NCBI GenBank assembly: GCA_947426265.1 | Contig: CANEDJ010000001.1 | Coordinates: 17,310-81,309, forward strand | From: an uncultured Mycoplasmatota bacterium | GTDB lineage: Bacteria; Bacillota_I; Bacilli_A; RF39; UBA660 | Length of the DNA: 64,000 nucleotides | Direction: 5' to 3' | Shown: one piece after another, positions 3,809-64,000 of the stretch | How the letters are laid out: each line of letters starts with the position of its first letter | Numbering within the stretch: the first letter of the stretch is position 1 | Made by a program: the position numbers and the translations under genes | Notes under the pieces: generated by a model | The model's input: the letters and a program-made list of their open reading frames with translations, nothing else | What the model was told of the DNA's origin: nothing | Databases searched by the model: none

Positions 3809-6800
3809 ATGAAACTTTTTCATTCCTTGTTCCCAAATGTTCAAACATCTGGAGAAATTACAGGATTAACCCAAGAATTAAAAATGATATATTTATATCA
3901 ATTGTGGAATCTAAAAAAAAGAAATATTTTACTTGTAGCCAATAGTTTGTATGAAGCAAATAGGTGTTATCAAAGATTAAGTAAATATACAGAAGAAGTA
4001 TATTTTTTTCCAATGGATGATTTTCTTACGAGTGAAGCCTTGGCTATTAGTCCAGAATTTAAAGTAACAAGATTAGAAACATTAAATCATTTCATATCAA
4101 AAAATAATGGAATTATTGTAACCAATTTAATGGGTTTTTTACGTTTTCTTCCCTCTAAAGAAACATATAAAAAGGCCAGAATAAAAATGCATGTTCATGA
4201 CCAAATTGATATGCATCAAGTGATAGAACAATTATTAAGACTTGGATATATCAAGGAAACGATTGTCAATAAAACAGGAGAAATTGCGATAAGAGGTTTT
4301 GTTTTAGACATATTTCCATTAGGAGCAAGTCATCCAATTCGAATCGAACTGTGGGGAGATGAAATTGATTCTATTAGAGAATTTGATGTTGATAGCCAGC
4401 TAACCATTACAGAAATAGAAGAAATCGAGATAACTTCAAATACAGAGTTTTTAATCGATGAGATTTTAGATATAGAACCAAAACAAAGAGAATTGGGAAA
4501 TTATATACAGCCTTCAATGCTATTGGACTTTGTAGAAAGTCCTATATTGGTGTTTGAAAATTATGAAGATGTTAAGAGAGGTTATCAAACATTATCAGAA
4601 GAAATATTTGAATATCAAAATAATAATCATGAAAAATATCCTTATATGCATTCTTTAGAAAATATAAAAGCAAATGATATATTATATTTAAACAACTTTG
4701 ATAATCAAATCAATGGAGAAAATAAAAGAGAACAATTTCACTCACAGGAGCTAGAAATATTACATGGAGCAAGCGAGAAAGTAAAAGCAGAAATATTAAA
4801 ATATAGAAAGAAAACAATTATTATTTGTGTATCGAATCGTTATCAAGTTAATAAATTACTAGAAGAATGGAATGATATTTCAATTGCTTTTACTTCAATA
4901 AATGAAATAGTAGAGAATGCGATTAATATAGTAATCTATCCAATAACGCAGGGATTTCTATTTAAAGAGTATGTGGTTATTAGTGAACGAGAATTATTTG
5001 CGAAACAAGATTATTCTAGTAAATATAAAAGTAACTTTAAAATAGGAACAAAAATAAAAAATTTATCCAGTCTAGAAGAAGGAGACTATGTAGTTCATGT
5101 CGCCCATGGAATTGGAAAATATTGTGGATTAAAAACATTAGTAAAAAATGGTTTTAAAAAAGATTATTTGAATATTGAATATAAAGATGGCGACCATTTA
5201 TATGTACCAGTAGAAAAGATAGAATTTATTCATAAATATTCATCTAAAGATACAGCAATGCCAAAACTGAGTAAATTAGGCGGAACAGAATGGCAGAAGA
5301 AAAAATTAAAGGCAAGAGAACGAGCGGAAAGTATCGCAGGAGAGTTATTAGAACTTTATTCTTCAAGAGAATCCATAGAAGGTTTTGCATTTGAAGAAGA
5401 TTCAAAAGAACAATTGGAATTTGAAAAAGAATTTCCATATCAAGAAACATTAGACCAAATAAAAGTATCTACAGAAATCAAAAAGGATATGGAAAAACCA
5501 CATCCTATGGATAGACTACTATGTGGAGATGTTGGTTATGGAAAAACAGAAGTAGCATTTCGTGCCATTTTTAAAGCAATTCATTCAGGAAAACAAGTAG
5601 CATTTCTTTGTCCAACGACCATATTATCAGGGCAACATTATAGAAATGCAATAGAACGCTATCAAAATTATCCGTTTAATATTTGTCTTCTAAATCGATT
5701 CGTCAAGCCAAAACAATTGAAAGAAAATTTAAAGAAAATAGAAGAAGGAAAAATAGATTTGGTCATAGGGACACATCGTTTATTAAGTGATGATGTAAAA
5801 TTTAAAGATTTGGGATTATTGGTCATTGATGAAGAACAGAGGTTTGGAGTAAAACATAAAGAAAAGATAAAGCAGTACAAAAATAATATTGATGTATTAA
5901 CTTTATCAGCAACTCCAATTCCAAGAACCCTTCAAATGTCAATCGCTGGGATTAGAAGTATGTCTTTAATAGAAACACCTCCAGTAAATCGTTATCCTGT
6001 TCAGACTTATGTATTAGCAGAAAATGCGCAAATGATAAAAGATGCTGTTTATAAAGAATTAGGGAGAAATGGACAAGTTTTTATCTTATATAATCATATT
6101 GAAAGTATGGAAAGAAAAGAGCAAGAAATAAAACAATTGATACCAGAGGCTAGAATAATCAGTGTGCATGGTCAGATGGATAAAAATGATATGGAAGATA
6201 AAATTCTGGATTTTATAAATCAAAAGTATGACATTTTATTATGTACAACAATTATTGAAACAGGAATTGATATGCCAAATGTGAATACATTAATCATTTT
6301 AGAAGCAGATTACTTTGGCTTATCACAACTTTATCAAATTAGAGGAAGAGTAGGAAGAAGTAATAAAATTGCTTATTGTTATTTGATGTATACTCCAGGA
6401 AAAAGTTTGTCTGAAATAGCAACCAAACGATTAACAGTCATTAAAGATTTTACAGAATTAGGAAGTGGATTTTCAATTGCCATGAGAGATTTATCAATAC
6501 GTGGAGCAGGGGACGTATTAGGGAGTGAACAAGCTGGCTTTATTGATACTGTAGGAATAGATTTGTTTTTAGAAATGTTAAACGAAGCAGTAGAAAAGAA
6601 AAAGGGAAATATAATTGAAGAAAAGAAAGAAGAAGAACAACCATTACTAGATGTAGAAACAGCAATAGATAATGATTATGTTTCAGATACTGAATTAAAA
6701 ATTGAAATTCATCAAAAAGTAAATCAAATTAATTCAAAAGAAAAACTTTTGGAAGTTAAAAAAGAAATAGAAGATAGATTTGGTAAAATTTCTGATTCAT

Positions 6801-10363: not shown

Positions 10364-10855
10364 ATGGCAAGATATTTTGAAAAAATTAGTTGGGAACAAT
10401 GGAAAAAAGATATCGGGAATAATAGAGAAGTTTACGAGAATCATGAGCTTCCAAAACGTCAAACAAAATTTAGCGCAGGCTATGATTTTAAAAGTCCTAT
10501 TGATGTTATTTTACATCCAGGCGATGTAAAGAAAATTCCAACAGGTGTAAAAATAGCGATGAATGAAGATGAAATGCTAATGCTTGTTGTAAGAGGTTCG
10601 GTAGGATTTAAATACAATGTGCGAATGACGAATCAAGTTGGAATATTTGAAAGTGATTATTTTAATAATATATCTAATGAAGGACATGCATGGATCAGTC
10701 TTCAAAATCATAGCAATGAAGATTTTATAATAAAAGTGGGAGATCGAATTGGACAAGGAATTTTTACAAAATTTTTGATGGTTGATAACGAAGAAGCGAT
10801 AGAAACGGAAAGACAAGGTGGATTTGGTAGTACCAATAAGGAGGAAAGAAAATGA
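10364..10855 (+). CDS. dut: dUTP diphosphatase (trimeric dUTPase)
   Basis: All five dUTPase motifs are present: SAGYDF, RGSVG, GIFESDY, DRIGQGIF, RQGGFGSTNK. GGAGG RBS. Confidence 0.8.
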   Translation: MARYFEKISWEQWKKDIGNNREVYENHELPKRQTKFSAGYDFKSPIDVILHPGDVKKIPTGVKIAMNEDEMLMLVVRGSVGFKYNVRMTNQVGIFESDYFNNISNEGHAWISLQNHSNEDFIIKVGDRIGQGIFTKFLMVDNEEAIETERQGGFGSTNKEERK

Positions 10856-48621: not shown

Positions 48622-49554
48622 ATGGGCGGCAAGATATTTAAAACCTTAGATGAACAAATAGAAATCTTAAAATCAAAAGGGTTGATAGTTGAAGACTTAG
48701 ATAAAGCAAAAGAGATTTTATTCCGTGAAAATTACTTTTTTATTAGTGGATATAGACACCTGTTTATGCGCACAGTGAAAGAAAGTAGATTTATTGAAGG
48801 AACGACTTTTGATGAGCTTTATGCAATGTTTTTGTTTGACAGAAAAATACGAAATATTATGTTCAAATATTTATTAATAATTGAAAATAATATCAAATCA
48901 ATCATCAGTTACACTTTGTCAAAAAAATATGGTTTTAAAGAAAAAGATTATTTGGACCCTAAAAATTTTACGCAAGATAATTTAAGAGTGAGACAAGTAC
49001 ATGATGTTCTAAATAAAATGAAAAGGCAAATAAGAGTAAATGGAAAACAACATGCTGCTACTATGCATTACCTTAGCAATTATGGTTATATACCAATGTG
49101 GATTTTAGTAAAAGTATTGTCATTTGGAATTGTTTCTGAATTATATTGTATACTAAAAGCAGAAGATCAAGAAACAATAGCAGATATATATGGTATTGAT
49201 ATTGAATCTTTAACGATATATTTAGCTCTTCTTTCAAATTTTAGAAATTTATGTGCTCATGAAGATATTTTATATGACCATAGGACCCAAAGAGTAATTC
49301 CAGATAATAAGTATCATCATATGTTAGATATCAGTCAAACAAAAGATGAATATGATTTTGGAAAAAATGATCTATATGCGCTTATTATTATCATGAAGCA
49401 AATGCTTAGAGAAGAAGAATTTCGAGAATTGATATATGAATTAGGTTATGAAATTGATATACTAGATGGTAAAGTAGAAGTATTACCATTAAACACAATT
49501 TTAAATAAAATAGGTTTTCCAGATAATTGGAGAGATATTGTTGATATGGATTAA
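48622..49554 (+). CDS. Abi_2 family abortive-infection protein (AbiD/AbiF-like)
   Basis: N-terminal LDEQIEILKSKGLIVED...YFFISGYRHLF characteristic of Abi_2. About 310 aa. Confidence 0.65.
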   Translation: MGGKIFKTLDEQIEILKSKGLIVEDLDKAKEILFRENYFFISGYRHLFMRTVKESRFIEGTTFDELYAMFLFDRKIRNIMFKYLLIIENNIKSIISYTLSKKYGFKEKDYLDPKNFTQDNLRVRQVHDVLNKMKRQIRVNGKQHAATMHYLSNYGYIPMWILVKVLSFGIVSELYCILKAEDQETIADIYGIDIESLTIYLALLSNFRNLCAHEDILYDHRTQRVIPDNKYHHMLDISQTKDEYDFGKNDLYALIIIMKQMLREEEFRELIYELGYEIDILDGKVEVLPLNTILNKIGFPDNWRDIVDMD

Positions 49555-50652: not shown

Positions 50653-50728
50653 AAGCTCTGCTTTTTAGATTTACTTCTTTTTACTTTTTTGTTATAATAA
50701 AAATAATAATAGAGGATTGGTGAAATTC

Positions 50729-52498
50729 ATGGAGCGAGAGGATTATTTAAAAGAACAGATAGAAACTTATATTGATCGTTTAGACTTATTAGGCATGCAA
50801 GAAGCGATCGATCAAAAGCGTGTTAAAGAAGCTGTTGATGAACTAGAAAAGTTAGCTACTGAATATATAAGTTTATTAGATGAAAGACTTGAAAGTCAAA
50901 TTCAAGGAATAGAAAAGAGATTTGTAGTTACTTTAGAAGAAGAATTAGAAAAAAGAAAACAAATTTGCGATGTTGTAAATAAAAGATTTGAAGAAATTGT
51001 ATCAATATTTTCAGATATAGAGAAAATAAGCGTTGCATCAGACCTTTGGTCACATATTAGTACTGTGATAGAAGCTTCAAAAAAACAAGTCCATGAATAT
51101 GAGAGCGATATTAAGTTAGTTGAAGAACAATTCATAAAAATAAATCAAGCAGAAAAAAAAGAAGCTAGTTTGAATGAAAATCGTAGAAAAGCTTATTTGA
51201 AGAAAACAGATTTAAGAAATAGACAAGTATCATTTGAATTTTTAAATGATGAAATTTTAGAAGTCTATCGTTCACTTTTAATTGAAGGAAATGCAGAGCA
51301 ATTAGATTTTTCAAATATACAAGCCAAAGAAAAGGCATTAAAAAAGCGTCAAAATCAATTGTTAGAAAATTTAGAGTTAGCACGTAATACCAAAGATGCT
51401 GAGGGTTATATAAAAGTTTATGAGGGACGTGTCAGAGAAAATCGATTAGAACTAGATAAAGTATCAGAGCAAACTTTTCTTCATTTGTTAAGAAGGATAA
51501 TGGATGCTCCAGTAGATAGCTATGAATCCTTAGCAAGTAGGACAAAAACAGTACAAGGAATGGTAAAATCTAGAATTTCTCAAGTAGAGCAATTGTATCA
51601 AGAAGGAATAGTGGAAAAGGAAGAATATACGACTCTAGCTTCAAGGATTGATCATAGTAGAATATATAGTCAATTGTCAGATTTGAAAGAATTAGACAGA
51701 AATGAAGCCTTTATAAGTTCAACTGAAGAACAATTAGAGCATACAAGAGATCATATAAAAGGAAAAGAAGAACTAGAATTAATATTTGCAGAACGTGCTA
51801 AGGAAAGAGGAAGAGTTGCAATTGTACCAGAGCCAATAGATCAGCCATCTTTATTAGATAATGGCGGAGAGGCAGAAATATTATTTGCAGATGAAGATGG
51901 ATTTGATGGTTATGAAGACTTAACCTCAAAACAAGTAAAGAAAGATAAAAAAAGAAGACGCCAAGTAATATCTATTGAGCCTGCAAAGAAAAGTTTATTG
52001 GAAAAATTGGGAAAAGCAATTGGAAATATTTCAAAAGGAATAAAAGACAAAATTATAGAATTGACGAAAAAGCCTACTAAGTATAATCCAGTAATAGGAG
52101 ACCAGATTGAGTTAAAAGAAAATGCAGCTATTTATGCTAATCCTTTAGATCTACCAGAAAAGAAAGATAAAAAAGAAGCAAAAGAATTAGGTTTAACTGG
52201 AACTAAATTATTTGTAGCAAGAGGTGTAATTTTAGATTATACGGGGACTCCGATTCATATTACAACAGATTATGGAGCAGATTTAGAAGCAATAGCTAAA
52301 AATATGAACTTAAAAGAGGGAACATATAGTATCGCTTTAAGCTGTTCACTAGGAGATTCAGAAGGAAAATTTATTGCTTTAACTGATGATAAATTAAATC
52401 CAGATATTGAAAAAGGCTGGATTAGCGCAGTGGATATGAATATAATCATTCTAAATTCATTAAGTGCCGCAAAGGAAAAGGGAGGAATGAAAAAATGA
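50729..52498 (+). CDS. hypothetical long coiled-coil protein with globular C-terminal domain
   Basis: About 590 aa. The first 330 aa have heptad-like Glu/Lys/Leu periodicity. Basic KKDKKRRRQ patch. No TM. Confidence 0.45.
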   Translation: MEREDYLKEQIETYIDRLDLLGMQEAIDQKRVKEAVDELEKLATEYISLLDERLESQIQGIEKRFVVTLEEELEKRKQICDVVNKRFEEIVSIFSDIEKISVASDLWSHISTVIEASKKQVHEYESDIKLVEEQFIKINQAEKKEASLNENRRKAYLKKTDLRNRQVSFEFLNDEILEVYRSLLIEGNAEQLDFSNIQAKEKALKKRQNQLLENLELARNTKDAEGYIKVYEGRVRENRLELDKVSEQTFLHLLRRIMDAPVDSYESLASRTKTVQGMVKSRISQVEQLYQEGIVEKEEYTTLASRIDHSRIYSQLSDLKELDRNEAFISSTEEQLEHTRDHIKGKEELELIFAERAKERGRVAIVPEPIDQPSLLDNGGEAEILFADEDGFDGYEDLTSKQVKKDKKRRRQVISIEPAKKSLLEKLGKAIGNISKGIKDKIIELTKKPTKYNPVIGDQIELKENAAIYANPLDLPEKKDKKEAKELGLTGTKLFVARGVILDYTGTPIHITTDYGADLEAIAKNMNLKEGTYSIALSCSLGDSEGKFIALTDDKLNPDIEKGWISAVDMNIIILNSLSAAKEKGGMKK

Positions 52499-53215: not shown

Positions 53216-53320
53216 ATAATCACCTAATTTACTATATGCTTTCTTTACATAATATCTACAATTGTATCTGTATTTTGCAAAAATATTACCTATAATTGTT
53301 ATGAATTTATAAGATGATTC

Positions 53321-53349
53321 TTGTACTTTGTAATAATTTATGATATACT
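53321..53349 (+). promoter_or_regulatory. promoter for tRNA-Trp
   Basis: -35 TTGTAC at 53321-53326, 17-nt spacer, then extended -10 TGaTATACT at 53341-53349. tRNA begins 19 nt downstream. Confidence 0.5.
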
Positions 53350-53367
53350 TTATTTGTATTTTGATTT

Positions 53368-53441
53368 AGGGGTATAGTTCAATGGTAGAATAACGGTCTC
53401 CAAAACCGCTGATGTGGGTTCAACTCCTGCTACCCCTGCCA
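53368..53441 (+). tRNA. trnW: tRNA-Trp (anticodon CCA), CCA 3' end encoded
   Basis: Folded by hand into a cloverleaf. Acceptor AGGGGTA/TACCCCT, D-arm GTTC-AATGGTA-GAAT, anticodon loop CTCCAAA, T-arm GTGGG-TTCAACT-CCTGC, discriminator G. Confidence 0.75.
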
Positions 53442-53492
53442 AATGTAAATAAACTCTAAATTTTAGAGTTTTTAATATATGATAAGAAAGAA

Positions 53493-53852
53493 ATGATTAA
53501 GATGGATAATGATTTTGTATATTTATCAAGTCATCAAGGATTTGCTCTAGTTGATAAAATTAGTGAACTAAAAGAAAATCCATATTTTAGAGATGAAATT
53601 GCCGAAAGTTTTATAAAAGAAGTCTATACAAGGGCTACAGAAATAACCGTTAATAGTCTCAACACTGGAACTAATATATTGTCAAAATTACGAAAAAATG
53701 GCAATAAAATTAAAATCTCAAAAAGTAAATTTGAATATATAACAAGATTAACTGGAATAGATGTTTTTGATGAAGAAACTATTAATCAATTTATATCTAA
53801 AGTAAATAAGGCTAATCCTGAAACTGAACAAACTAACTTAAGAAGAAGATAA
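53493..53852 (+). CDS. hypothetical protein (119 aa)
   Basis: ORF immediately downstream of tRNA-Trp. No recognisable domain. Weak RBS. Confidence 0.35.
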   Translation: MIKMDNDFVYLSSHQGFALVDKISELKENPYFRDEIAESFIKEVYTRATEITVNSLNTGTNILSKLRKNGNKIKISKSKFEYITRLTGIDVFDEETINQFISKVNKANPETEQTNLRRR

Positions 53853-53973
53853 TAAAAGTAACATTCATACAACAAATAAAATTTGGAAACTCGTTCAGTT
53901 TCCGTGCCATTTGAGAATAAGGCGAACTCCATCTTCGTATTTAAAGGTGGTGTCGCTATTAATATAGCAATTA

Positions 53974-54000
53974 AAAGAGTGCCAAAGTGGGCACTTTTTT
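53974..54000 (+). terminator. rho-independent terminator
   Basis: Stem agtgcc/ggcact followed by T6. Confidence 0.5.
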
Positions 54001-54029
54001 CCATTTTATGGTATAATTAAGGTATGAAG

Positions 54030-54732
54030 GAAATGGTAGAAGTAATTCGAATAGATTAGTTTCTAATATATAATGAAACTGAATTTGTGACAAGGAATTA
54101 CTCATAAAGCATATGAGGAACTTAATTTGTCCGATGTACAATTAGAAACTTTTATAGAAAGATTAATTATTGATATAAATGCTCTAACATATGAGGACTT
54201 AGAAAAATAGTTTTTGCACAATTAAAAAATGAGTTTTCTTGTAATGACGAACTCTTAGAATTATATTTTATAAAGGCTGGGAGTATAATAAAAGAGTTGG
54301 CTGTAAAAGATGATGTAAATGACAGAAAAATAAGCAAAAAAGTTTTTTAAAGTTAATATCAGATGTTAATAAAACCTTAGATAGTTGGTATGTTAGCAAG
54401 ATTGGTATAGAGAAATATTGTAAATTAATGAGAAAAAAATATCTCAAATGTATGGTAATAGAGAAATTATGACATCTATCATTAGATATTTGAATAGCTT
54501 AGGATGTAAGACTTCTACTGATAAAGAGTTCAATAAAAGTAGTATAGGAAGAATATTAAACAATAAAAAGTATATAGGAGTTTATTTACATAGAGATATA
54601 GAAACCCCAGATGGAATACCTAGAATAATAGAAGATGAATTGTTTGGGAAAGTTCAACAGGAGCTAACCAGGAACGGTTTGGTGTCTGCTAGAAATAGAG
54701 CAAATTTTATTAAAAGAAATAAAAAATTATAA
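54030..54732 (+). pseudogene. decayed large serine recombinase gene (frameshifted fragments; longest piece 54448..54732 retains recombinase-domain similarity)
   Basis: The 94-aa fragment IIRYLNSLGCKTSTDKEFNKSSIGRILNNKKYIGVY...IIEDELFGKVQQEL matches the recombinase domain that follows the resolvase domain in large serine recombinases. Upstream 400 bp holds several short out-of-frame ORF pieces and no intact N-terminal catalytic domain. Confidence 0.4.
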
Positions 54733-54889
54733 TTATATAGAGAATGGAACAGAAATAGTTACAACTGATAAAAATATATTTATTTTTAATTATGATTTGA
54801 CAATATTTTTGAGTGTATAAATAAAAAAATGTGCTACAGTTTAAAAATGTATTATTGAGATAAATAATTATAGCAAAGGAAGTGAGATC

Positions 54890-55231
54890 ATGAATCATGA
54901 AATGAGATTACATGAAGGACCATTTAATAGAATTAATAGTGGAATAAAAACGATAGAGTATCGATTAAATGATGAAAAAAGAAGACAAATTAAGGTAAAT
55001 GACACAATTACTTTTTATAAAAGACCTGAAGAAGTAGAAACAATTAAGGTAAAAGTTGTAGAGTTAAGATATTATGATACTTTACTAGATATGTATGCAG
55101 ATACTTTTAAAAGTTATTTAAATGAAATATATGAATCTCCACAGGCAGTAGTAGATGATACTTCCTACTATACAGAGGAAGAAGTAAAAAAATATGGTTG
55201 TGTAGCAATCTTTTTTGTGAGAATCGGATAA
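54890..55231 (+). CDS. ASCH-domain protein (YqfB-like PUA-fold)
   Basis: 113 aa. F..INSGIKTIEYR...IKVNDTITFY pattern plus C-terminal YGCVAIFFVRI, resembling the ASCH/YqfB architecture. Confidence 0.55.
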   Translation: MNHEMRLHEGPFNRINSGIKTIEYRLNDEKRRQIKVNDTITFYKRPEEVETIKVKVVELRYYDTLLDMYADTFKSYLNEIYESPQAVVDDTSYYTEEEVKKYGCVAIFFVRIG

Positions 55232-55233
55232 AT

Positions 55234-55713
55234 ATGGTTACAATTATTAATTATGATAGAAAATATGCAGAAGAAATAGATAAACTAGATCAAGAATATT
55301 GGGGAATCTGCGAAACTACTAATGTATCAGATGAAATAAGAGACCAGGATATTGTGAAACTTGCAAAGTTAGAAGATTATATTGTAGGCATTATACATTT
55401 TAAACCAATAGGAGATTTAATAGACGCTTATCATCTTTTAGTAAAGCCAGAGAATCAGGGACAAGGAATTGGCAACCTTTTGATGAAAGAAGCCTTAAAA
55501 GAAACTTTAAAAAATGATTTTAAAACAGTAATCGCTCATGCTGTAGAATTTGAAGGAAATATAAATGCAAAGAAAATATTGGAGACTAATGGATTTCAGG
55601 AACTTTATAGAGTAAAAAATTATTGGGAATCTTTATACCCGGGGAGTTATTGTAAACAATGTAATAGCTATCAATGTCATTGTGGAGTAGTTGTATATCG
55701 AAAGAACTTATAA
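55234..55713 (+). CDS. GNAT-family N-acetyltransferase (160 aa) with Cys-rich C-terminal tail
   Basis: Acetyl-CoA motif A QGQGIGNLLMKEAL. Starts 2 nt after the ASCH stop. Tail CKQCNSYQCHC. Confidence 0.7.
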   Translation: MVTIINYDRKYAEEIDKLDQEYWGICETTNVSDEIRDQDIVKLAKLEDYIVGIIHFKPIGDLIDAYHLLVKPENQGQGIGNLLMKEALKETLKNDFKTVIAHAVEFEGNINAKKILETNGFQELYRVKNYWESLYPGSYCKQCNSYQCHCGVVVYRKNL

Positions 55714-55750
55714 AAGTATAGGTTTTTTTATTTTATATAGAAACTTAATT

Positions 55751-55759
55751 TGGTATAAT
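55751..55759 (+). promoter_or_regulatory. extended -10 TGgTATAAT upstream of nucleotidase gene
   Basis: TG at 55751-55752 and TATAAT at 55754-55759. This excludes the ATG at 55758 as the start codon. Confidence 0.4.
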
Positions 55760-55781
55760 GAAATTGAAGAGGAGGATAAGA

Positions 55782-56297
55782 ATGGATAAAGAAATTAAAA
55801 ATATACTAAAATTAGTAGATGAAAATTTTTGGTACATGATTGATATTGATGGAGTTTGCATAGATACAGAAGAACGTATTGCTATTATAGCTCGTCAATT
55901 AGGATGGAAAAGAGCCTTAGAAACAATAAATTGGCATGAGCATATTTATTCTTCTAGGCAGATCAATCATAGTTTAGATGTATTAAGAGAAGTTCAAAAG
56001 AATTTAAAAAGAATTCAACTATTAACTACAAATCATAGTCCTCTTGAAAAGAAAGAGAAGATCTCTTTTATGAGAGAACAAGGCATAGAAATTCCAATTG
56101 TTTCAGTGCCACCAAAAGTATCAAAAGCATTAGTAGTTCCCCCATCATTTTATAATCGGAAAGTTGTATTGGTAGATGATAAGAAAGAAAATGTTATAGA
56201 TTGGAGAAATCATGGAGGAGTGGGAATTGTTTTTACAGAACAGGATAGTTCAACTCCAAAAGTAAAAAGTTTAGAATTTTTAAGATATGTAAAGTAG
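55782..56297 (+). CDS. HAD-superfamily 5'(3')-deoxyribonucleotidase-like protein (NT5C family)
   Basis: N-terminal YMIDIDGVCID (DxDG nucleophile motif) and C-terminal VLVDDKKENV. ATG after GAGGAGGA. Confidence 0.5.
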   Translation: MDKEIKNILKLVDENFWYMIDIDGVCIDTEERIAIIARQLGWKRALETINWHEHIYSSRQINHSLDVLREVQKNLKRIQLLTTNHSPLEKKEKISFMREQGIEIPIVSVPPKVSKALVVPPSFYNRKVVLVDDKKENVIDWRNHGGVGIVFTEQDSSTPKVKSLEFLRYVK

Positions 56298-56307
56298 GAG
56301 GTATTAT

Positions 56308-58371
56308 ATGTTAATCAAATCAAACGCAATAGATCGTTTATTAAGGGAAAATCCAGGCTTAGGAGAAAGACGTTTTGGATTGCCAGATATTGGTCTTAGA
56401 GTAGATGGTGAAAAGTTCAATCCGACAGTTCAAAGCATTGCTGATGCAATAGATTTTTATGGTTTCGAAGTGAGAGATGAAAATATAGCAACAATTCCTG
56501 ATATAGATTTAGGAAGTGGGAATCCAACAAAGTATCCCCCATTTCCTCTATCAATAGAAGAAATGAAAAAATCTTTAGATTCTCTTTCTATGTACAAATA
56601 TCCCTATACAGAAGGTGATGATAATATTAGAAAAATATTACTTGATTATATAGAAAAAGAAGGAATTATTAATACTTCACCATATGCTTATAAAGACGTG
56701 GATGAAAAAGGTTTATCTGTTCATAATGTTACTTTTTTGCCATCAACATCAATTGCATTTAATATGATTATTAATGTTATCTCAAAGCCAGGAGATGTTG
56801 TATTAGTAACAGGTCCGAATTATGGCTTATTCACAATTCGAGCAGAAAGGGCAGGAGCCGAAGTTGAAATATTAAATTTAGAAAAAGAAGATAATTGGCT
56901 AGTCAATCCAACAAAGTTGGCGAATAAAATAGATGAAATCAATGAGAGTTTACAAAAGGTTTATAATCGTAGAAAAGGATATGTTCCAAGAGTAGTGGCG
57001 TTTTTAAATGCGAACCCAAATAATCCAACTGGAAAAGTGATGGGAGAAAAAGATATCGATTTACTGAGAGCAATAGGACAAATCTGCTTGGAACGTGGTG
57101 TGTTTATAATTGATGATTTGGTATATCGTGATTTAACGTTTGATGAAAATAATCTTGCAAAACCAATCGCAACAATTCCAGGAATGTTCCGAAATACAAT
57201 CTCTTTGTTTGGACTTTCTAAAAGCTATGGAATGGCTAGTTTACGTGCTGGATTTGTAGTGGCAGATGAAATTATAATTAGAGAGTTAATAAATCGTATT
57301 TTCCAAGAAATGGATTCTTCTCCAGATATTGTAGGAAGAGCTTTAGCTGGTGCATTTAATACAAGCAAAGAAAGAGAACTTGTCTATCAGGAATACTTTC
57401 GTGATTTAAGAAATATCTATCAGTATAAATTTCATTTATTAAAGGCTCTGGTAAATGGAATTGAAAGCATTAAAGATAGTCCTTATTATGAAGAAGTAAG
57501 CTCCAAAATAGTATCTGAAGTAGAAAAAGAAAATTTAGAACAAGTCTTAAAGGGACTTCCTTATACGGATTTTCCAGAAAATTTAATACCAGAAGCTGGA
57601 TTTTTCGCTATTTTAGATTTTACAAGAATAAAAGGTATGAAATATCATGGGGATACAATCAATAGCGAAAAAGATTTATTAAAATTTTTCTATAAAACTT
57701 CTAGGACAAGATTTTTAGTCGGGCAATCAATTAGTTGGCCTTATGAAAATGAATTAGTGGGGAGGGTTACTTTTGCCCTAGAAGATGAACAAATTATTAG
57801 TGCACTTAAAAATATGAATTTAGCACTTTCAAAGCTTACAGTAAGAGAAGAATATATTATTAGAAAAAATGAGCTAAAAGATCAGGAGCAAATGGCTCAT
57901 ATTAAAGTCGATGGTTGGAGAACTGCATACGATAAAATTGTCGCATCAAAATATTTAAATGAATTAAATTATGAGGCTCAAACAGAACGTTATATACGTA
58001 GTTTTGAAGATTATAAAGATTTAGTATTGGTGGCAGTAGAAGGTAATGAAGTTTTAGGCTATTCTTGTTTTGATATTAAGAAATTCTATGAGAAATATGA
58101 TTCTGAATTGGTTAGTTTATATATTAAACCTGATCATAAAGGAAAAGGGATAGGAAGTGCATTATTCAAAGAAACGGTAAAAGAACTATTAAGTCGTGAT
58201 AGAAAAAATATGATAGTTTGGTGTTTTGCAGAAAATGAAAAAGCAATTCGTTTTTATGAAAAATTAGGTGGAAAAAATGTAGAAACGAAACAAGCTAAAA
58301 TAGGAGATAATTATTATAAAGAATATGGATTTTACTTTGATTTAGAAATGATAATGAAAGATCAATTCTAA
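56308..58371 (+). CDS. fusion protein: class I/II PLP-dependent aminotransferase (N, about 480 aa) plus GNAT acetyltransferase (C, about 170 aa)
   Basis: IDLGSGNP near the N-terminus. SKSYGMASLRAGF PLP-lysine motif. C-terminal YIKPDHKGKGIGSALF GNAT motif A. Confidence 0.65.
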   Translation: MLIKSNAIDRLLRENPGLGERRFGLPDIGLRVDGEKFNPTVQSIADAIDFYGFEVRDENIATIPDIDLGSGNPTKYPPFPLSIEEMKKSLDSLSMYKYPYTEGDDNIRKILLDYIEKEGIINTSPYAYKDVDEKGLSVHNVTFLPSTSIAFNMIINVISKPGDVVLVTGPNYGLFTIRAERAGAEVEILNLEKEDNWLVNPTKLANKIDEINESLQKVYNRRKGYVPRVVAFLNANPNNPTGKVMGEKDIDLLRAIGQICLERGVFIIDDLVYRDLTFDENNLAKPIATIPGMFRNTISLFGLSKSYGMASLRAGFVVADEIIIRELINRIFQEMDSSPDIVGRALAGAFNTSKERELVYQEYFRDLRNIYQYKFHLLKALVNGIESIKDSPYYEEVSSKIVSEVEKENLEQVLKGLPYTDFPENLIPEAGFFAILDFTRIKGMKYHGDTINSEKDLLKFFYKTSRTRFLVGQSISWPYENELVGRVTFALEDEQIISALKNMNLALSKLTVREEYIIRKNELKDQEQMAHIKVDGWRTAYDKIVASKYLNELNYEAQTERYIRSFEDYKDLVLVAVEGNEVLGYSCFDIKKFYEKYDSELVSLYIKPDHKGKGIGSALFKETVKELLSRDRKNMIVWCFAENEKAIRFYEKLGGKNVETKQAKIGDNYYKEYGFYFDLEMIMKDQF

Positions 58372-58383
58372 AAGGAGGTTAGT

Positions 58384-59433
58384 ATGACTTACTTAATATT
58401 TCAATCAGCGTTATCAATAGAGAATAATCAAATACAATCTTGGGCGCCCAAAAGGAATCCTAAAACAAATAATAAAAAATATTGGTGGGAAAATGTTGGA
58501 AAAATAAAAAAGGGAGATATTATATATTTCATTTCAGATGCATATTTATGTGCCAAAGGAAGAGCTATTATGGATGGTAAAGAAGTAGTACATCAAGATT
58601 ATTATACTGAACCTCACAATAATGATAGTTGGAGCGATGATGGATATGGAGTTATTAGTGAAGTTTTAGAAACTTATCAAACCAAACAAATAAAAATAAT
58701 ACAGGAAATGAAACAGAAAAATTATCAGATAGAAGCACAAGAGAAGGATCGTTTTCCCTTTTGTATTAGAACAGGCAGTTTTACCGCAAAACAAGGGGGA
58801 TATTGTTTTGAAATTCATTCAAAGCTGATTACATTTATAGAAGAATGTGTTATAAATGCAGGAAATAGAATAAAATGGGGAGAGAAATATAATCATCATA
58901 ATATATTAGATAAGAAACTTCCTAGTACATATGGAACAAGTGAAATATCTTCAAAAAAAATAAAAAAGGGAGAAAAAGGAGAAAAAGGAACTCAAAAATT
59001 TTTTGAAAATAAAGGATTTCTTACGGAACTTGTAGCAGAGGAGAAGCGAAATCCAGCAGATTTGGTCATTAGGAATAATGGCAAAGAATACATGATAGAG
59101 ATAAAGAATATAACTGTAGAATCGGCAGAAAAGTCTATTTATTTAAATGACTCACAGCTTCAAAATTTATATTTACAAAAGACTTATTTATGTTTATATT
59201 ATGGCTTAGAAGAAATGGTATTTTTATTAAATCCTCAGAAACAAAAAACAGTAATAAAAGAGCTTATAGAAAGTTTTGATAAAATTCGGGAAAATGTAAT
59301 TCACCAATATAGTGGAAAATTTTATGTAGATAATATTTCAGTTTTATTGACAGAGAAAATGATTGTAGAAAATTTTATCGATATTAGTAATTGGAATTTA
59401 AATCAAATAGAAGCCTATTTAAATAAAAAATAG
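58384..59433 (+). CDS. hypothetical two-domain protein: N-terminal PUA-like (EVE/ASCH-like?) domain plus C-terminal PD-(D/E)xK nuclease-like (DUF3883-like) domain
   Basis: N-terminal WAPKRNPKTNNKKYWWENVGKIKKGDIIYF. C-terminal GFLTELVAEEKRNPADLVIRNNGKEYMIEIK with D...E.K spacing. Tentative. Confidence 0.35.
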   Translation: MTYLIFQSALSIENNQIQSWAPKRNPKTNNKKYWWENVGKIKKGDIIYFISDAYLCAKGRAIMDGKEVVHQDYYTEPHNNDSWSDDGYGVISEVLETYQTKQIKIIQEMKQKNYQIEAQEKDRFPFCIRTGSFTAKQGGYCFEIHSKLITFIEECVINAGNRIKWGEKYNHHNILDKKLPSTYGTSEISSKKIKKGEKGEKGTQKFFENKGFLTELVAEEKRNPADLVIRNNGKEYMIEIKNITVESAEKSIYLNDSQLQNLYLQKTYLCLYYGLEEMVFLLNPQKQKTVIKELIESFDKIRENVIHQYSGKFYVDNISVLLTEKMIVENFIDISNWNLNQIEAYLNKK

Positions 59434-59445
59434 AAGTGTGAACTT

Positions 59446-59709
59446 CTATTTTACTTTAGGATCCTCAAATAATTGGTCAATCTGAATATTTAAGACTTGA
59501 CTAATATTCCATAAAACTGGAACACTTACCATTTGTTTCTCAGATTCTAAGGTTCCAATTAAACCTGTACTAACTCCAATCATTTCAGCTAAAGCTGCTT
59601 GCGTGATACGCTCTTTATGATTTAAGTTATATAAATTTCGATAATAGCGAACATTACTACCAACTAACCTTGCCAATTCTTCTTTATTGTTATCATTATA
59701 TAATTTCAT
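59446..59709 (-). CDS. XRE-family helix-turn-helix transcriptional regulator
   Basis: HTH ITQAALAEMIGVSTGLIGTLESEKQ. 87 aa. Confidence 0.75.
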   Translation of the reverse strand: MKLYNDNNKEELARLVGSNVRYYRNLYNLNHKERITQAALAEMIGVSTGLIGTLESEKQMVSVPVLWNISQVLNIQIDQLFEDPKVK

Positions 59710-59739
59710 ATTACCACCTGACTACTCACTGCTACCAAC

Positions 59740-59769
59740 ATTGTAACCTTTTAACTAGATTGTTACAAT
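59740..59769. promoter_or_regulatory. palindromic candidate operator in divergent promoter region
   Basis: Perfect 8-bp inverted repeat ATTGTAAC (59740-59747) and GTTACAAT (59762-59769) with 14-nt spacer. Lies between the XRE gene and a rightward promoter (-35 TTGTTA at 59787, -10 TATAAT at 59811). Confidence 0.45.
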
Positions 59770-59837
59770 TTAATATATATAATAAATTGTTAGATATACT
59801 AATAATAAGGTATAATATAAATGGAGGGAGCAGTAAA

Positions 59838-60023
59838 ATGAAAAAACAAATTGATATTCTTTATGTGAAAAAAGTGATAAAACCATTAGAAGAAGTAATT
59901 CATAAAGTGGAAGTATCTGATGAATTTTCACAACGAGACTTAGAAACTTTAAATCAATTATTATTAGAAAAATACCTAATTTTAGAACATATATTACAGG
60001 AAAATTCTTCTAATAGTCAATAG
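59838..60023 (+). CDS. small protein (61 aa), divergent from the XRE regulator; weak Spo0E-like motif
   Basis: ATG after GGAGGGAG. SQRDLETLNQLLLEKY loosely resembles the Spo0E family SQELDxLI motif. Confidence 0.35.
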   Translation: MKKQIDILYVKKVIKPLEEVIHKVEVSDEFSQRDLETLNQLLLEKYLILEHILQENSSNSQ

Positions 60024-60261
60024 AAAAATAAAAAGCAAGAACGTAAAATAACTATATTTAGAAAAGAGGAGAGATGTAAATAGGATAATAATAGAGATTT
60101 CTATTAAAAACATCAGGCTAATTGAAAAACAGGATATTTAAAAAGAATATCATTTGAAGAAAACCTCCATGAAAAGATTATAAACAAAATTAAATTTCTA
60201 AAAAATTGTGAATAAAATTTTACTTTTTTATCATAATAGGGATAAGAGAGGAGAATGTAAT

Positions 60262-60702
60262 TTGAGCGAAAGTAATCAAGAATTATTGCAGTATATTTAT
60301 AAAATAGCTGAGATGGGAAAATATTCTACAACAGAATTAGTAAAAGAATTACATGGGAAAGATAACAAAATTAAAGAAATATTAGATGATATTTTAAAAG
60401 AATACGAGAAATTTTATGAAAAGTCATTAAAATTATTTGATAAATTTAAAATACAAGAAAAAGAAGTAGGATTTATGTCAAAAATGAGTGCTAGTATTAG
60501 TATGAAAAAAGAAGTATTAGATGATAATAGTGATGCCAGCATGGCAGATATGCTTATAAAAGGACTTACTATGGGCAGTTTAGAAATGAGTAAAAAAATT
60601 GATCAATATGAGAAAAAAGCAGATGACAAAATACTAAATCTAGCAAAAGAACTTCATAAATTTCAAGAAAAACAAATTGATAATTTAAAAAAATATTTAT
60701 AG
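60262..60702 (+). CDS. hypothetical protein (about 146 aa from TTG; the ORF could extend to GTG at 60208)
   Basis: AGAGGAGA RBS 7 nt before TTG at 60262. Candidate promoter at 60206-60234 would overlap the GTG alternative. Confidence 0.3.
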   Translation: MSESNQELLQYIYKIAEMGKYSTTELVKELHGKDNKIKEILDDILKEYEKFYEKSLKLFDKFKIQEKEVGFMSKMSASISMKKEVLDDNSDASMADMLIKGLTMGSLEMSKKIDQYEKKADDKILNLAKELHKFQEKQIDNLKKYL

Positions 60703-60733
60703 CTATTTCAGGATAAGCAAATAGCTTTTTTTA
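60701..60733 (+). terminator. rho-independent terminator
   Basis: Stem agctattt/aaatagct with 10-nt loop, then T7. Confidence 0.6.
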
Positions 60734-60812
60734 TAAACAAATTGTTAGAATGCGTTGTTGTAATTTTTATAAAATTAAGATACAATAGACATCAGGAAAA
60801 GGAGGAAACTTC

Positions 60813-61385
60813 ATGATAGAAAGTTTTAAAAAATTGTTTTTGATGTCTATTTTATCTTCAATTTTCTTTATTATAGTTGGTTTATTTTTAATTATGAAAC
60901 CAGATACAACAATGGCAATTATTTCTTATGCTATTGGATCCTTAATCATGGTAAGTGGTACAATATTCTTAATTAAATATTTTACTAACAGAAATGGATA
61001 TACAATGCTTAGTGGAGAATTAATCTTAGGAGTTATTTGTGTTATTGTAGGAATATCGTTATTTTTAAATCCAAAAGCGTTAGCAAGTGTGATCCATTTT
61101 ATCCTTGGAATGTGGATTATTATTAGCAGTGTTACCAAAATCCAATATGCGTTTCAATTAAAAGCATATAATAACAAAGCTTGGATTCCTACAATGATAT
61201 TAGCAGCAATAACATTTATTTGGGGATTATTGTTATTATTTGATCCATTTGAAGGAGCTATGTTGATTACTCAGATTATTGGAATGTTTATTTTAGTGTA
61301 TGCAATTCTAGACTTGGTTGAAGTCTTCATTATTCGAAAAAATTTAAGAGATATTAAAGATGGAATTATTGAAATAATAAAATAG
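60813..61385 (+). CDS. DUF308 (HdeD-like) membrane protein
   Basis: Six TM helices with repeated GxxxIxxGI signature segments. AAGGAGGAA RBS. Confidence 0.55.
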   Translation: MIESFKKLFLMSILSSIFFIIVGLFLIMKPDTTMAIISYAIGSLIMVSGTIFLIKYFTNRNGYTMLSGELILGVICVIVGISLFLNPKALASVIHFILGMWIIISSVTKIQYAFQLKAYNNKAWIPTMILAAITFIWGLLLLFDPFEGAMLITQIIGMFILVYAILDLVEVFIIRKNLRDIKDGIIEIIK

Positions 61386-61410
61386 AAGATTTTGAAATCT
61401 TCTATTTTCT
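61383..61410. terminator. bidirectional terminator between convergent genes
   Basis: Stem tagaagatt/aatcttcta flanked by A-run and T-run. Confidence 0.5.
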
Positions 61411-62409
61411 ATTATTGATTGCTTTTTCAAATACAGGAAGCATTCCAATGCCATTTTCTCTATGAGGAGGCAATTGATAAATATCATGACCAGGGAACTC
61501 ATTTCCTTCAATTAAAAGCGGACCATGGTCAGAAATTGCAACATCCCATCCAACTAATCCCACTTGTGGAACCACTTTAGCTGCTTCTAATACTAAACTT
61601 TTTACGAGTTCCCATTCTGGAATTTGAAATCCTTGTATTGGAGTGTTAGTTTCTGGATGTATATCAAAAACTAAATTTTTTTTATTTACAGCTGGATAAA
61701 TAATTTTTCCTGTTTTTATATCAATAGGAGCAACCATACCACCAGCATTAAAATTATCCACTATTTTTCCACAGCCAATTCTAGAATAAGCAGCAATAAT
61801 TTTTGATTTATTATTTTTAAAAATGCTAATTACTCGAATTGTATTAATGGAAGAAGGATTTAAAGAACTCATTGTTTTTTCTTGAATAACAAGTTCTTCT
61901 ATTAAAAATAAATTTTGTTTCATTAAATATTGATAAAGATTTTTATCTTTCCACTCATTAATTTTGATTTTCTGCATATTATCTCCATGAGTTCCATTTA
62001 AAGGTTTTGCAAAAATTTCTTTTTTATTTTTTAAAAAATTATTGAATGCTTCCTGATTGCTTCCATTTAATAAAATCCAATCACGTTTGATATAATCCTT
62101 AAACATTTTATTAAATTCTTGTTTTTCTCTAAACAGGTAGGTATAGTTTTGATCATTATATTTTTTAATATAAGCATTATTAATTCCTCTGGTCAAGATT
62201 GTTTTTCGTTGATTTTTATTTAAATGATACATTTCAAACAGAAGATAATCTAAATATCCTGCTTGATACTTTAACCCACAATAAACAATATCAAAAAAAA
62301 TAAATAATTTGTTTTTTTTCGTTTTCTTTTTTACCTCGTTAATTGTAAGAAAAAATCGTTTATAGTCCATGCTAAAAATTCTTTTTATTAAATAACTTAG
62401 TTTTTTCAT
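61402..62409 (-). CDS. sugar-transfer-associated ATP-grasp family protein (alpha-L-glutamate ligase-like)
   Basis: 335 aa with the ATPgrasp_ST pattern (FDIHPETNTPIQGFQIPEW...WDVAISDHGPLLIEGN). Confidence 0.55.
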   Translation of the reverse strand: MKKLSYLIKRIFSMDYKRFFLTINEVKKKTKKNKLFIFFDIVYCGLKYQAGYLDYLLFEMYHLNKNQRKTILTRGINNAYIKKYNDQNYTYLFREKQEFNKMFKDYIKRDWILLNGSNQEAFNNFLKNKKEIFAKPLNGTHGDNMQKIKINEWKDKNLYQYLMKQNLFLIEELVIQEKTMSSLNPSSINTIRVISIFKNNKSKIIAAYSRIGCGKIVDNFNAGGMVAPIDIKTGKIIYPAVNKKNLVFDIHPETNTPIQGFQIPEWELVKSLVLEAAKVVPQVGLVGWDVAISDHGPLLIEGNEFPGHDIYQLPPHRENGIGMLPVFEKAINNRK

Positions 62410-62561
62410 CCTATCACCATTTTTATTTTAGCACATTTTCCTACATAATGTAATAGATAATAAAGTAGGATAATGAACAAAGAGTAAAAAATAAAGAATA
62501 GAATATCTCTTTTCAGTAATACTAATAATATGATATACTATTTTAGGATAGGAGTGTATTT

Positions 62562-63071
62562 ATGGAACTACTTATATTATGTATTAAGATTTTTTGCGCA
62601 AGAATTATGGATGTGTCACTTGGAACTGTAAGAACTGTATTAACTGTGAAAGGCAAAAAAGGATATGCAAGTTTAATCGGATTTGTCGAAGTTTTAATTT
62701 GGTTTATTATTGTACAGGAAGCAATGAATACAGAACTTACTAGCATTTTTATTGCGATCTCTTATGCAGGAGGATATGCGACAGGAACTTATATAGGAGG
62801 TTTTATTTCACAAAAATTTATTCCAGGAAATTTTGGGGTTCAAATTATTACAAGTATAAAAAAAGCTTCTATGATAGAAACTTTAAGAAAAGAAGGATAT
62901 GCAGTATCTGTAATTAATGTAAAAGGACAAGAAGAAGAAAAATTGATGCTATTTATTGAAATTGACAAAAAAAGATTTGTCCATTTACAGTCAATTGTCA
63001 AAGAACTAGACGATAAGGCATTTTTAGTAGTGAATGAAACAAAGATGGTTCAGAATGGATATTTTAAATAA
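62562..63071 (+). CDS. UPF0316 family membrane protein (DUF5698 plus DUF2179)
   Basis: Two N-terminal TM helices and a C-terminal DUF2179-like domain (SVINVKGQEEEKLMLFIEIDKKR). Confidence 0.5.
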   Translation: MELLILCIKIFCARIMDVSLGTVRTVLTVKGKKGYASLIGFVEVLIWFIIVQEAMNTELTSIFIAISYAGGYATGTYIGGFISQKFIPGNFGVQIITSIKKASMIETLRKEGYAVSVINVKGQEEEKLMLFIEIDKKRFVHLQSIVKELDDKAFLVVNETKMVQNGYFK

Positions 63072-63139
63072 AAAGTAATAAAATCATAAAATAAAAACCA
63101 AAAACCACTTTATACATACATTATAATGAGGTGTATTAT

Positions 63140-63601
63140 ATGTATAAAGTATATCAGGTATTACCAGGAGAAGAATTAAAAAGCATTGCAGAAAAATTGG
63201 ATATGGAATATCAAGTGTTATGCGAACTCAATGGATTTTTAGAAGGACACGAATTGAGAGCAGGAGAAAATCTAGTGATTCCAAATAATCAAGCAAATTT
63301 ATTTCAAAGTTATCGTGTGAAAGCTGGAGATAATTTATATGAAATCGGAAGACGTTACCAAACAAGTGCCAAAGATATTGCGCTTATTAATGGATTAGAA
63401 GAAGATGATTACATTTATCCAAATCAGGAATTGCTAATTCCAAGAGCAGGAGTACAAGTCTATATAACAGAAGAAGGAGATACATTAAAAAATGTATCTA
63501 AAAAATTTAAAACCACTGTAGAAAAATTAGTAATGGAAAATGAAAATATTTATTTGTTGCCCGAACAATTATTGGTTTTTAAAAGAGAGAATTTTTTATA
63601 A
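63140..63601 (+). CDS. LysM-repeat protein (3 LysM domains, no signal peptide)
   Basis: Three repeats of about 45 aa each, each ending in LVIP, LLIP or LLVF. ATG after AATGAGGTG. Confidence 0.7.
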   Translation: MYKVYQVLPGEELKSIAEKLDMEYQVLCELNGFLEGHELRAGENLVIPNNQANLFQSYRVKAGDNLYEIGRRYQTSAKDIALINGLEEDDYIYPNQELLIPRAGVQVYITEEGDTLKNVSKKFKTTVEKLVMENENIYLLPEQLLVFKRENFL

Positions 63602-63659
63602 AAACTCTTTTTTTTTGGATTCTTTTAGGTTATAATGAACTATAAGGGAAGTGAAATAA

Positions 63660-64000
63660 ATGAAAAAATTATTTGTATTCGTTATAATTGGTCTTTCTTT
63701 GCTTTTAACTGGATGCGGAAATAAGTTAAAAACTTATAAAGAAGTAGATTATAAAACTTTGATGAATATGTTTGAAGAAAAACAAAGTTTTATCCTATTC
63801 ATTGGTTCAACAGAATGTCAGCATTGCGATTTATATAAGGAAACATTAAATGAAGTTATTTCAAAATATCAAGTTAAAATTAGTTATATTGATATTTCAA
63901 AACTATCAATGGAAGAAAACGCAAAATTAAAAATATATGTAAATTATAATGGCACTCCAACTACTGCTTTTATTGAACAAGGAGAAGAAACTTCTATGTA
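63660..64000 (+). CDS. thioredoxin-fold lipoprotein (CxxC), 3'-truncated by window end
   Basis: Lipobox LLTGCG. CQHC redox motif in a thioredoxin-like context. AAGGGAAGTGA RBS. Confidence 0.5.
   Translation, partial: MKKLFVFVIIGLSLLLTGCGNKLKTYKEVDYKTLMNMFEEKQSFILFIGSTECQHCDLYKETLNEVISKYQVKISYIDISKLSMEENAKLKIYVNYNGTPTTAFIEQGEETSM

Follow-up and report, generated by a model that had tools for sequence, protein, structure and literature searches.

Genomic islands and integration hotspots linked to tRNA genes are a classical concept, and integrases have sublocation preferences within tRNA genes. The large serine recombinases of phages and integrative and conjugative elements (ICEs) combine Resolvase, Recombinase and Zn_ribbon_recom domains. 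To our knowledge, tRNA-dependent integration has so far been documented only for actinobacteriophages. In the tRNA-dependent lysogeny of these phages, a core of ~10 bp is used, the host tRNA is not reconstructed, and an element-borne tRNA complements it (Guerrero-Bustamante & Hatfull 2024, PMC10865867). In the HerA-DUF4297 anti-phage system, the nuclease is the Cap4-like DUF4297 (PMC11291478; bioRxiv 10.1101/2024.10.24.620088). Here we analysed a 64,000-nt stretch of contig CANEDJ010000001.1 from an uncultured Mycoplasmatota bacterium (hereafter the window), in which the sole tRNA gene found by ARAGORN and Rfam is an intact tRNA-Trp (CCA) gene (53368-53441, plus strand; Rfam 62.8 bits), followed by an accessory block with the remains of a large serine recombinase gene and of a DUF4297 gene. 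We consider it probable that the window holds an immobile, decayed remnant of an element within a tRNA-linked hotspot, a real but ordinary feature.

The block shares with tRNA-linked islands its position beside a tRNA gene, its variation by strain and species, integrase debris, defence-type and accessory cargo, and a tRNA that is reused by several element types. It differs from them in having no intact integrase, direct repeats or compositional deviation, and in starting after a small orphan gene, h119, rather than at the tRNA. Nothing in the window is able to move now, and of an integrase gene only the Recombinase-domain fragment of ~90 codons is left.

Both relics can be identified directly from profile matches. 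The recombinase relic (54430-54732, plus strand; Pfam, PHROG, HMMER and tblastn) retains the 'Recombinase' domain only, corresponding to about residues 175-271 of ~500. Within it, the ATG at 54448 opens a called open reading frame (ORF) of 94 aa (54448-54732), which has significant matches to Pfam PF07508 'Recombinase' (E=9.2e-14, profile positions 14-102 of 102) and to the PHROG 95 integrase (E=5e-17). An exhaustive HMMER search of 1.84 billion representatives returned 134 matches below 1e-10, the best being ~500-aa proteins aligned at residues ~180-270 with identities of at most 51-55%, and a word-indexed search for close intact relatives of the fragment yielded self-matches only. When these ~500-aa proteins and the intact recombinases of related loci were mapped by tblastn, coverage was limited to 54433-54702, and no zinc-ribbon/coiled-coil C-terminal region was found in the window by this mapping. 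The resolvase catalytic domain PF00239 was detected neither by Pfam on the ORF nor by tblastn of five intact recombinases against 53442-55000. The fragment resembles the large serine recombinases of phages and ICEs in holding the Recombinase domain at the matching position, and relatives carry intact enzymes of full architecture at this tRNA; it differs in that about 17% of such a gene is left, with the catalytic serine domain, zinc ribbon and coiled coil gone, and in being at most 55% identical to intact proteins.

An earlier note on this DNA, made from the letters alone, had drawn a single frameshifted recombinase relic across 54030-54732; the recombinase domain stands for 54448-54732, whereas 54097-54448 (plus strand) belongs to a DUF4297 (Cap4-like) defence-nuclease gene, of which the middle third remains and both ends are gone. 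This second relic matches PADLOC model PDLC02187 (E=4.3e-26, profile positions 128-243 of 404), and two frameshifts spread it over three frames (54097-54207, 54207-54347 and 54350-54448). The likeness to the HerA-DUF4297 system lies in this match; the difference is that the relic is partial and has no HerA-like partner, as Pfam and PADLOC scans of the region's ORFs found no HerA-type ATPase beside it, its neighbours being h119 and the recombinase relic. A word-indexed search gave no close intact relative. The two relics abut, with an overlap of ~19 nt in different frames.

Related contigs and loci compared with the window are referred to by L numbers. One of them, L110, carries the same recombinase pseudogene lineage (87.7% nucleotide identity over 54433-54667), spanning residues ~164-479 with one stop and one frameshift. 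By tblastn its resolvase domain is gone, and its C-terminal part is kept, with a weak Zn_ribbon_recom match (E=1e-4) under the Pfam cutoff. The pseudogene adjoins a defence-type SMEK gene matching a PADLOC Argonaute-associated model, and its left neighbours differ from those in the window. The nearly equal 5' truncation points in the window and L110 suggest that the catalytic domain was lost first, and the 3' two-thirds of the window's copy later.

We examined the variability of the flank in two samples, namely 21 same-species contigs found by exact-protein look-up with the cell-wall hydrolase encoded upstream of the tRNA, and 80 species loci from a genome-collection scan. The layout of the window is present in 14/21 same-species contigs, at 99.4-100% identity through 63215, and the other seven fall into three types. 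Four contigs of the L003 type, L008 included, have a 99.1% identical core and lose homology at 53415 inside the tRNA; in one contig, L007, homology with the window ends at 53405; and in two contigs of the L009 type the tRNA is kept, divergence follows immediately, and homology is regained at 55694-58481 and 59422-60994. Across species, the adjacency of hydrolase and tRNA-Trp is kept in most of the 80 loci, and the downstream content differs almost everywhere. Homology to the window ends 0-472 bp after the tRNA in all five of the closest species that have sequence there: in L018, L020, L022 and L024 it is gone 0-39 bp past the tRNA, and in the sibling species L019 it is kept through h119 to 53913 at 84-86% nucleotide identity, followed by 3.5 kb of unrelated DNA, including a methyltransferase/radical-SAM fusion, before L019 rejoins the window at 59444. 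The change of gene content at tRNA-Trp that the earlier note had seen is borne out by these alignments, in which the flank varies among same-species contigs and related species.

The breakpoints of the variable DNA are directly visible. It starts at 53442 against L009, L018 and L020, and at 53914 against L019 and L109, the latter left breakpoint, common to the window, L019 and L109, lying at a hairpin GGAAACTCGTTCAGTTTCC followed by GTGCCATTTG (53885-53913, plus strand). The right breakpoint is the 3' end of an XRE-family regulator gene (59446-59709, minus strand; Pfam), the first gene of the backbone, with homology resuming at 59444 in L019 and at 59422 in L009. Judging from these alignments, the accessory block comprises about 53914-59443 (~5.5 kb), plus, in some lineages, the h119 module at 53442-53913. 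Its interior is not uniform. The segment 53914-55693, with the relics and the genes for an ASCH-domain protein (54890-55231, plus strand; Pfam) and a GNAT acetyltransferase (55234-55713, plus strand; Pfam), occurs only in contigs of the window's layout; the ASCH and GNAT pair (54890-55713) is absent from L009, L018 and L019, and the ASCH protein has the same context in 22/22 contigs that carry it. In contrast to the relic segment, 55694-58481 is common to L009/L018 and in part to L061. The module at 55758-58371 within it, shared with L009/L018 at 94.7% and with L061 at 77% nucleotide identity and not found in L019, is an older accessory module. Additionally, the DNA after h119 in L019 is homologous to the DNA after the tRNA in L009. 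On the sequence comparison, the block is best described as a mosaic of modules with different distributions, not as a single kept cargo.

Upon examining the relatives, we observed that several kinds of elements use this tRNA. The anticodon loop and stem contain CTCCAAAACC (53398-53407, plus strand), which is unoccupied in the window and is the common core at which tyrosine-integrase and tRNA-truncating elements join in relatives, with core junctions in L003/L008, L035, L079, L062 and L007 and right junctions in L064, L099 and L100. In L064 the tRNA is intact and its last 44 nt (CTCCAAAACC to CCA) recur 3.9 kb downstream, the copies lying at 10501 and 14388 in window orientation. This locus is an integrase-less remnant whose ORFs look MBOAT/DltD-like by eye only. 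The metagenome loci L099 (1069-3262) and L100 (47-92) show the same right junction, and just inside it (attR) L099 carries a tyrosine integrase and a small, weakly HTH_17-like ORF. L064, L099 and L100 are classical tyrosine-integrase elements at the anticodon-loop site with a 44-nt direct repeat. As a side observation, L115 (1-31) and four similar contigs start at tRNA nucleotide 10, their first 31-mer ending at the last base of CTCCAAAACC, and a k=31 assembly graph should break in this way when a sample contains both the occupied and the empty allele.

Serine-recombinase elements join further downstream. L105 (1060-2886) and L101 (7695-7768) represent the occupied and the empty allele of one species and are 100% identical from the junction CCCC/TGCCA onward, placing the insertion 5 nt before the 3' end of tRNA-Trp. 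The 574-aa recombinase of L105 ends about 100 bp inside the junction and has Resolvase and Recombinase domains and a sub-threshold Zn_ribbon_recom match. By this comparison, the tRNA 3' end with the downstream hairpin (53413-53472, plus strand), in which the window differs from L101 at 9/60 positions, would be an unoccupied candidate attachment site for serine-recombinase elements. L082, L043, L047 and L020 carry, directly past an intact tRNA, a conserved left end with left-end genes, marked by the motif ctccaaaaatWtggagYaaacatatataaaagcacggaaaac. L082 combines AbiLi-like and PDC-S11 defence genes with genes for a small resolvase and for a recombinase that shares 68% identity with that of L105. 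Furthermore, in L030, L044 and L048 the tRNA-Trp is followed by a hairpin, a conserved ORF of 91-95 aa and a co-oriented 636-aa large serine recombinase, 0.5-2.5 kb downstream of the tRNA, the L048 copy being split into several ORFs. This geometry matches the window, where the tRNA is followed by a hairpin, h119 and the relics.

A third group of elements truncates the tRNA. In L003/L008, L035, L079 and L062 the host tRNA ends at CTCCAAAACC with unrelated DNA next, the left junction of L003/L008 being equivalent to 53407/53408 of the window, and in L007 the host tRNA ends at CTCCAAAA before unrelated DNA. In total, five independent junction types end at CTCCAAAA(CC) with non-tRNA DNA beyond, and the host tRNA is not rebuilt. 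ARAGORN finds a complete tRNA-Trp(CCA), unlike the host copy in sequence, 190-520 bp inside the inserts of L003, L007, L008, L079 and L062; the L035 contig ends too soon to show one. The L003 insert is ICE-like, encoding ParA, ParB, a SpaA adhesin, a sortase, SSB and a 2465-aa protein. No integrase is visible on the available parts of these elements, whose far ends lie outside the contigs. Their right junctions were not recovered by context look-ups with h119 and ASCH, which gave the window's layout only, by two scans of viral collections, which gave nothing, or by a metagenome scan, which gave only junctions of the tyrosine-integrase type. The cutting of the host tRNA after a ~10-bp core in these relatives recalls the tRNA-dependent lysogeny of actinobacteriophages; the elements differ in being ICE-like or unclassified and not phages, the arrangement is found in the relatives and not in the window, and dependence on the element tRNA would hold by analogy. 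We also considered whether the tRNA of the window is itself element-borne and rejected this, as its 5' half and upstream DNA are contiguous with the native flank of L003, L009 and L018. Separately, L077 seems to have had its tRNA gene replaced: its native site (about 1488-1561 in window orientation) holds a decayed tRNA-Trp whose acceptor, D and T arms are altered, and an intact copy of identical type lies 1.1 kb downstream (about 2640-2713).

These findings suggest that the 3' flank of tRNA-Trp acts as a recurrent landing and exchange site for mobile DNA in a clade of uncultured small-genome gut Bacilli. Most likely, a defence-type island mobilised by a serine recombinase was once present at this locus, and the two relics would be parts of this one element, integrated here. 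Since the intact L082 pairs a serine recombinase with defence genes, a recombinase-mobilised defence island is the most economical source of both fragments. The island would have lost the catalytic domain of its recombinase, then the C-terminal part, together with both attachment sites, and later deletions and module replacements between anchors formed by the tRNA and h119 on the left and XRE on the right would have produced the present mix of ASCH, GNAT, 179-aa gene, aminotransferase-GNAT fusion and 349-aa orphan. The earlier note's picture of an old element that lost its mobility and kept its cargo is upheld as to the decayed and immobile relic; it is not upheld as to the cargo, which is mosaic, and local integration is not demonstrated.

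Several results weigh against this reading. The recombinase relic is only 38-42% identical to the recombinases of L082 and L105 and has no detectable relationship to the L030-type enzyme, so that at least three serine-recombinase lineages are associated with the tRNA-Trp flank, and no direct tie to a recombinase targeting tRNA-Trp supports the relic's descent from an element integrated at this tRNA. The relic is located past h119, whereas L105-type elements insert in the gap separating the tRNA from h119, and L110, a 2.3-kb contig without a tRNA, does not place the relic's original locus. The DUF4297 and recombinase pieces may also have arrived separately. The classical island signatures are missing as well. 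A search for the 44-nt 3' part of the tRNA with up to 3 mismatches finds just the tRNA itself in the window; the 10-nt core CTCCAAAACC occurs just once in the region; within 53442-64000 the tRNA aligns locally with a best score of 22, compared with a shuffle mean of 22.3; and a search for repeats flanking the block (53300-59900) gave just short AT-rich chance matches. The earlier note had likewise seen no direct repeat of the tRNA 3' end. Its proposed check for foreign origin through GC content and codon usage revealed no deviation: relative to 36 non-ribosomal core genes, GC, GC3 and synonymous-codon likelihood per gene stay within about +/-2.7 standard deviations in no consistent direction, and the GC profile across the window is flat.

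Of the alternatives, cassette exchange fares best, and we regard it as rather unlikely. Here the block between the anchors would be swapped by homologous recombination, and the fragments would be passenger debris that was already dead, with no local integration in this lineage. The window, L019 and L109 have breakpoints at the same anchors; whole modules move, as shown by the match between the L019 DNA after h119 and the L009 DNA after the tRNA; the pseudogene lineage recurs in L110 beside other left neighbours; and the lack of attachment-site remnants and of a compositional signal is in keeping with it. Furthermore, the window is 94.6-94.7% identical to L009 in the modules within 55694-60994 and only 88% identical in the upstream core flank, as expected after recombinational import; this difference may reflect recombinational exchange or the effect of a fast-evolving 593-aa gene upstream. 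However, three kinds of intact site-specific elements use tRNA-Trp in relatives, which makes local integration a simpler source of the fragment, and the order of tRNA, small ORF and co-oriented recombinase matches that of L030, L044 and L048. Cassette exchange and local integration are compatible and not mutually exclusive.

It is very unlikely that all of 53442-63601 represents a single old integrated island that kept its cargo, as the earlier note proposed. Gene content does change at the tRNA, most genes up to 63601 are poorly characterised, and more distant species show no synteny downstream of the tRNA. This reading is contradicted by L019, which is collinear with the window over 59444-63639 at 85-86% nucleotide identity, similar to its core flank (84%). 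L009 keeps 59422-60994, and homologues of the DUF2179 and LysM genes are found near the hydrolase in many more distant species, in several of them on its other side. The interior is mosaic, and neither boundaries, repeats nor a compositional signal of such an island appear. Because it is kept in L019 at core-like identity, 59444-63601, from XRE to LysM, is chromosome backbone and not island, leaving as the variable part of the proposed island only the stretch from 53442 or 53914 to 59443.

It is hardly credible that the 94-aa ORF (54448-54732) has been domesticated as a small protein with a function, such as a remnant that binds DNA. The ORF is open from an ATG start, identical across 36 contigs and annotated by gene callers, but its sameness follows from the 99.4-100% identity found throughout the region in those contigs and not from selection, the homologous piece in L110 has an in-frame stop, and the ORF is cut within the domain at profile position 14, has neither catalytic nor zinc-ribbon part, and abuts a second pseudogene in a different frame.

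Returning to the decayed element in a tRNA-linked hotspot, we offer tentatively a broader possibility, namely that tRNA-Trp and h119 together form a landing pad for multiple systems, comprising tyrosine-integrase elements, at least two or three serine-recombinase lineages and tRNA-replacing ICE-like elements, of which the window would be a burnt-out end state, with a role of h119 tied to the site. The h119 gene (53493-53852, plus strand) encodes an orphan 119-aa protein without a family match. Only nine clusters of homologues are known from the search, 116-119 aa in length and 51-98% identical. In the window, L019 and the L101 species the gene comes after tRNA-Trp, as it does in L109, where the pair lies beside gpsA and not the hydrolase; it is not found in L009/L018; and in the L062 insert it follows the element-borne tRNA. 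An alignment-based AlphaFold model (pLDDT 76.5) had no fold match with E<0.1 in the PDB or BFVD.

For the window, the value of the analysis is mainly a correct annotation, with two pseudogene fragments and not one, a block of 5.5 kb and not 10 kb, and downstream genes that belong to the backbone. The comparison itself maps one integration hotspot at good resolution, in a lineage for which metagenomes are the only source, and places to the base the junctions of a serine-recombinase defence-island family and of elements that disrupt and replace the tRNA gene. With such junctions, mobile elements can be delimited in the metagenome-assembled genomes (MAGs) of this lineage, and candidate attB/attP pairs become available for new serine recombinases. 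The related loci are more interesting than the window, given their multiple integration modes at one tRNA, their tRNA-replacing ICE-like elements and a split tRNA-Trp.

We next consider the remaining genes of the block and the backbone. Pfam supports the ASCH, GNAT, aminotransferase-GNAT, XRE, ATP-grasp and LysM labels that the earlier note had given. Two others are not supported: the 'nucleotidase', a 179-aa gene (55758-56297, plus strand) whose function is unverified, and the 'nuclease-like' h349, a 349-aa orphan gene (58384-59433, plus strand), have no significant match in Pfam, NCBIfam, PADLOC, PHROG or the PDB. TALE-repeat matches to the 179-aa protein were dismissed as spurious, no individual stretch being significant. 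Between these two genes lies the aminotransferase-GNAT fusion of 687 aa (56308-58371, plus strand; Pfam). In L009, h349 was lost through a deletion at an 11-nt microhomology (AATAAAAAATA), with its first 32 codons remaining; a single-sequence AlphaFold model of h349 was unusable (pLDDT 29). The backbone genes after XRE are h61, h164, DUF308, ATP-grasp (minus strand), DUF5698/DUF2179 and LysM (59835-63601; Pfam, with synteny in L019). A 26-nt palindrome, ACAATTTAATATATATAATAAATTGT, occupies 59765-59790 in the AT-rich DNA that separates XRE from the divergent h61. Promoter-like sites face each other there (59741-59769 and 59768-59740), and the palindrome is plausible as a putative operator.

A split tRNA-Trp was seen in L109 (about 3823-4162), where an insert of ~264 nt separates the anticodon stem from the loop. 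Its acceptor halves AGGGAAA/TTTCCCT are complementary, and the gene goes undetected by ARAGORN. Pairing is possible between the exon end GTCGGT and GCCGAC of the insert, with a U.G pair at the junction; the last base of the insert is G, a group-I-like arrangement. The fold z-score is -3.4. Its assignment as a group I intron was not retained, there being no Rfam match even at E<=10. Group I introns in tRNA genes of Patescibacteria are likewise missed by standard tools (PMC13011429).

The window has ~29% GC and a strong leading-strand skew. Its closest relatives are MAGs labelled uncultured Bacilli, 'Tenericutes', Firmicutes CAG:822 or Candidatus Coprosoma, with complete chromosomes of 1.3-1.5 Mb among them. 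Upstream of tRNA-Trp lie ribosomal-protein genes, rpoA, L17, an AbiD-like gene, HtrA, the 593-aa protein, a DUF1292 gene and the cell-wall hydrolase gene on the minus strand. Within this otherwise conserved flank, every same-species contig carries an AbiD/Abi_2 abortive-infection-type gene (48622-49554 in the window; PADLOC AbiD, E=1e-61), even the divergent L007 and L009. The 593-aa protein (50717-52498) has no family match and evolves much faster than its neighbours, with 26-83% amino acid identity across species in which the adjoining hydrolase shows 90-99%. Finally, L027, L029, L038, L046, L061, L035, L028 and L074 carry a distant serine-recombinase-like gene, with 22-27% identity to the L105 enzyme, in a similar place 2-4 kb from the hydrolase and mostly on the side opposite tRNA-Trp, which may be a conserved chromosomal or domesticated recombinase.

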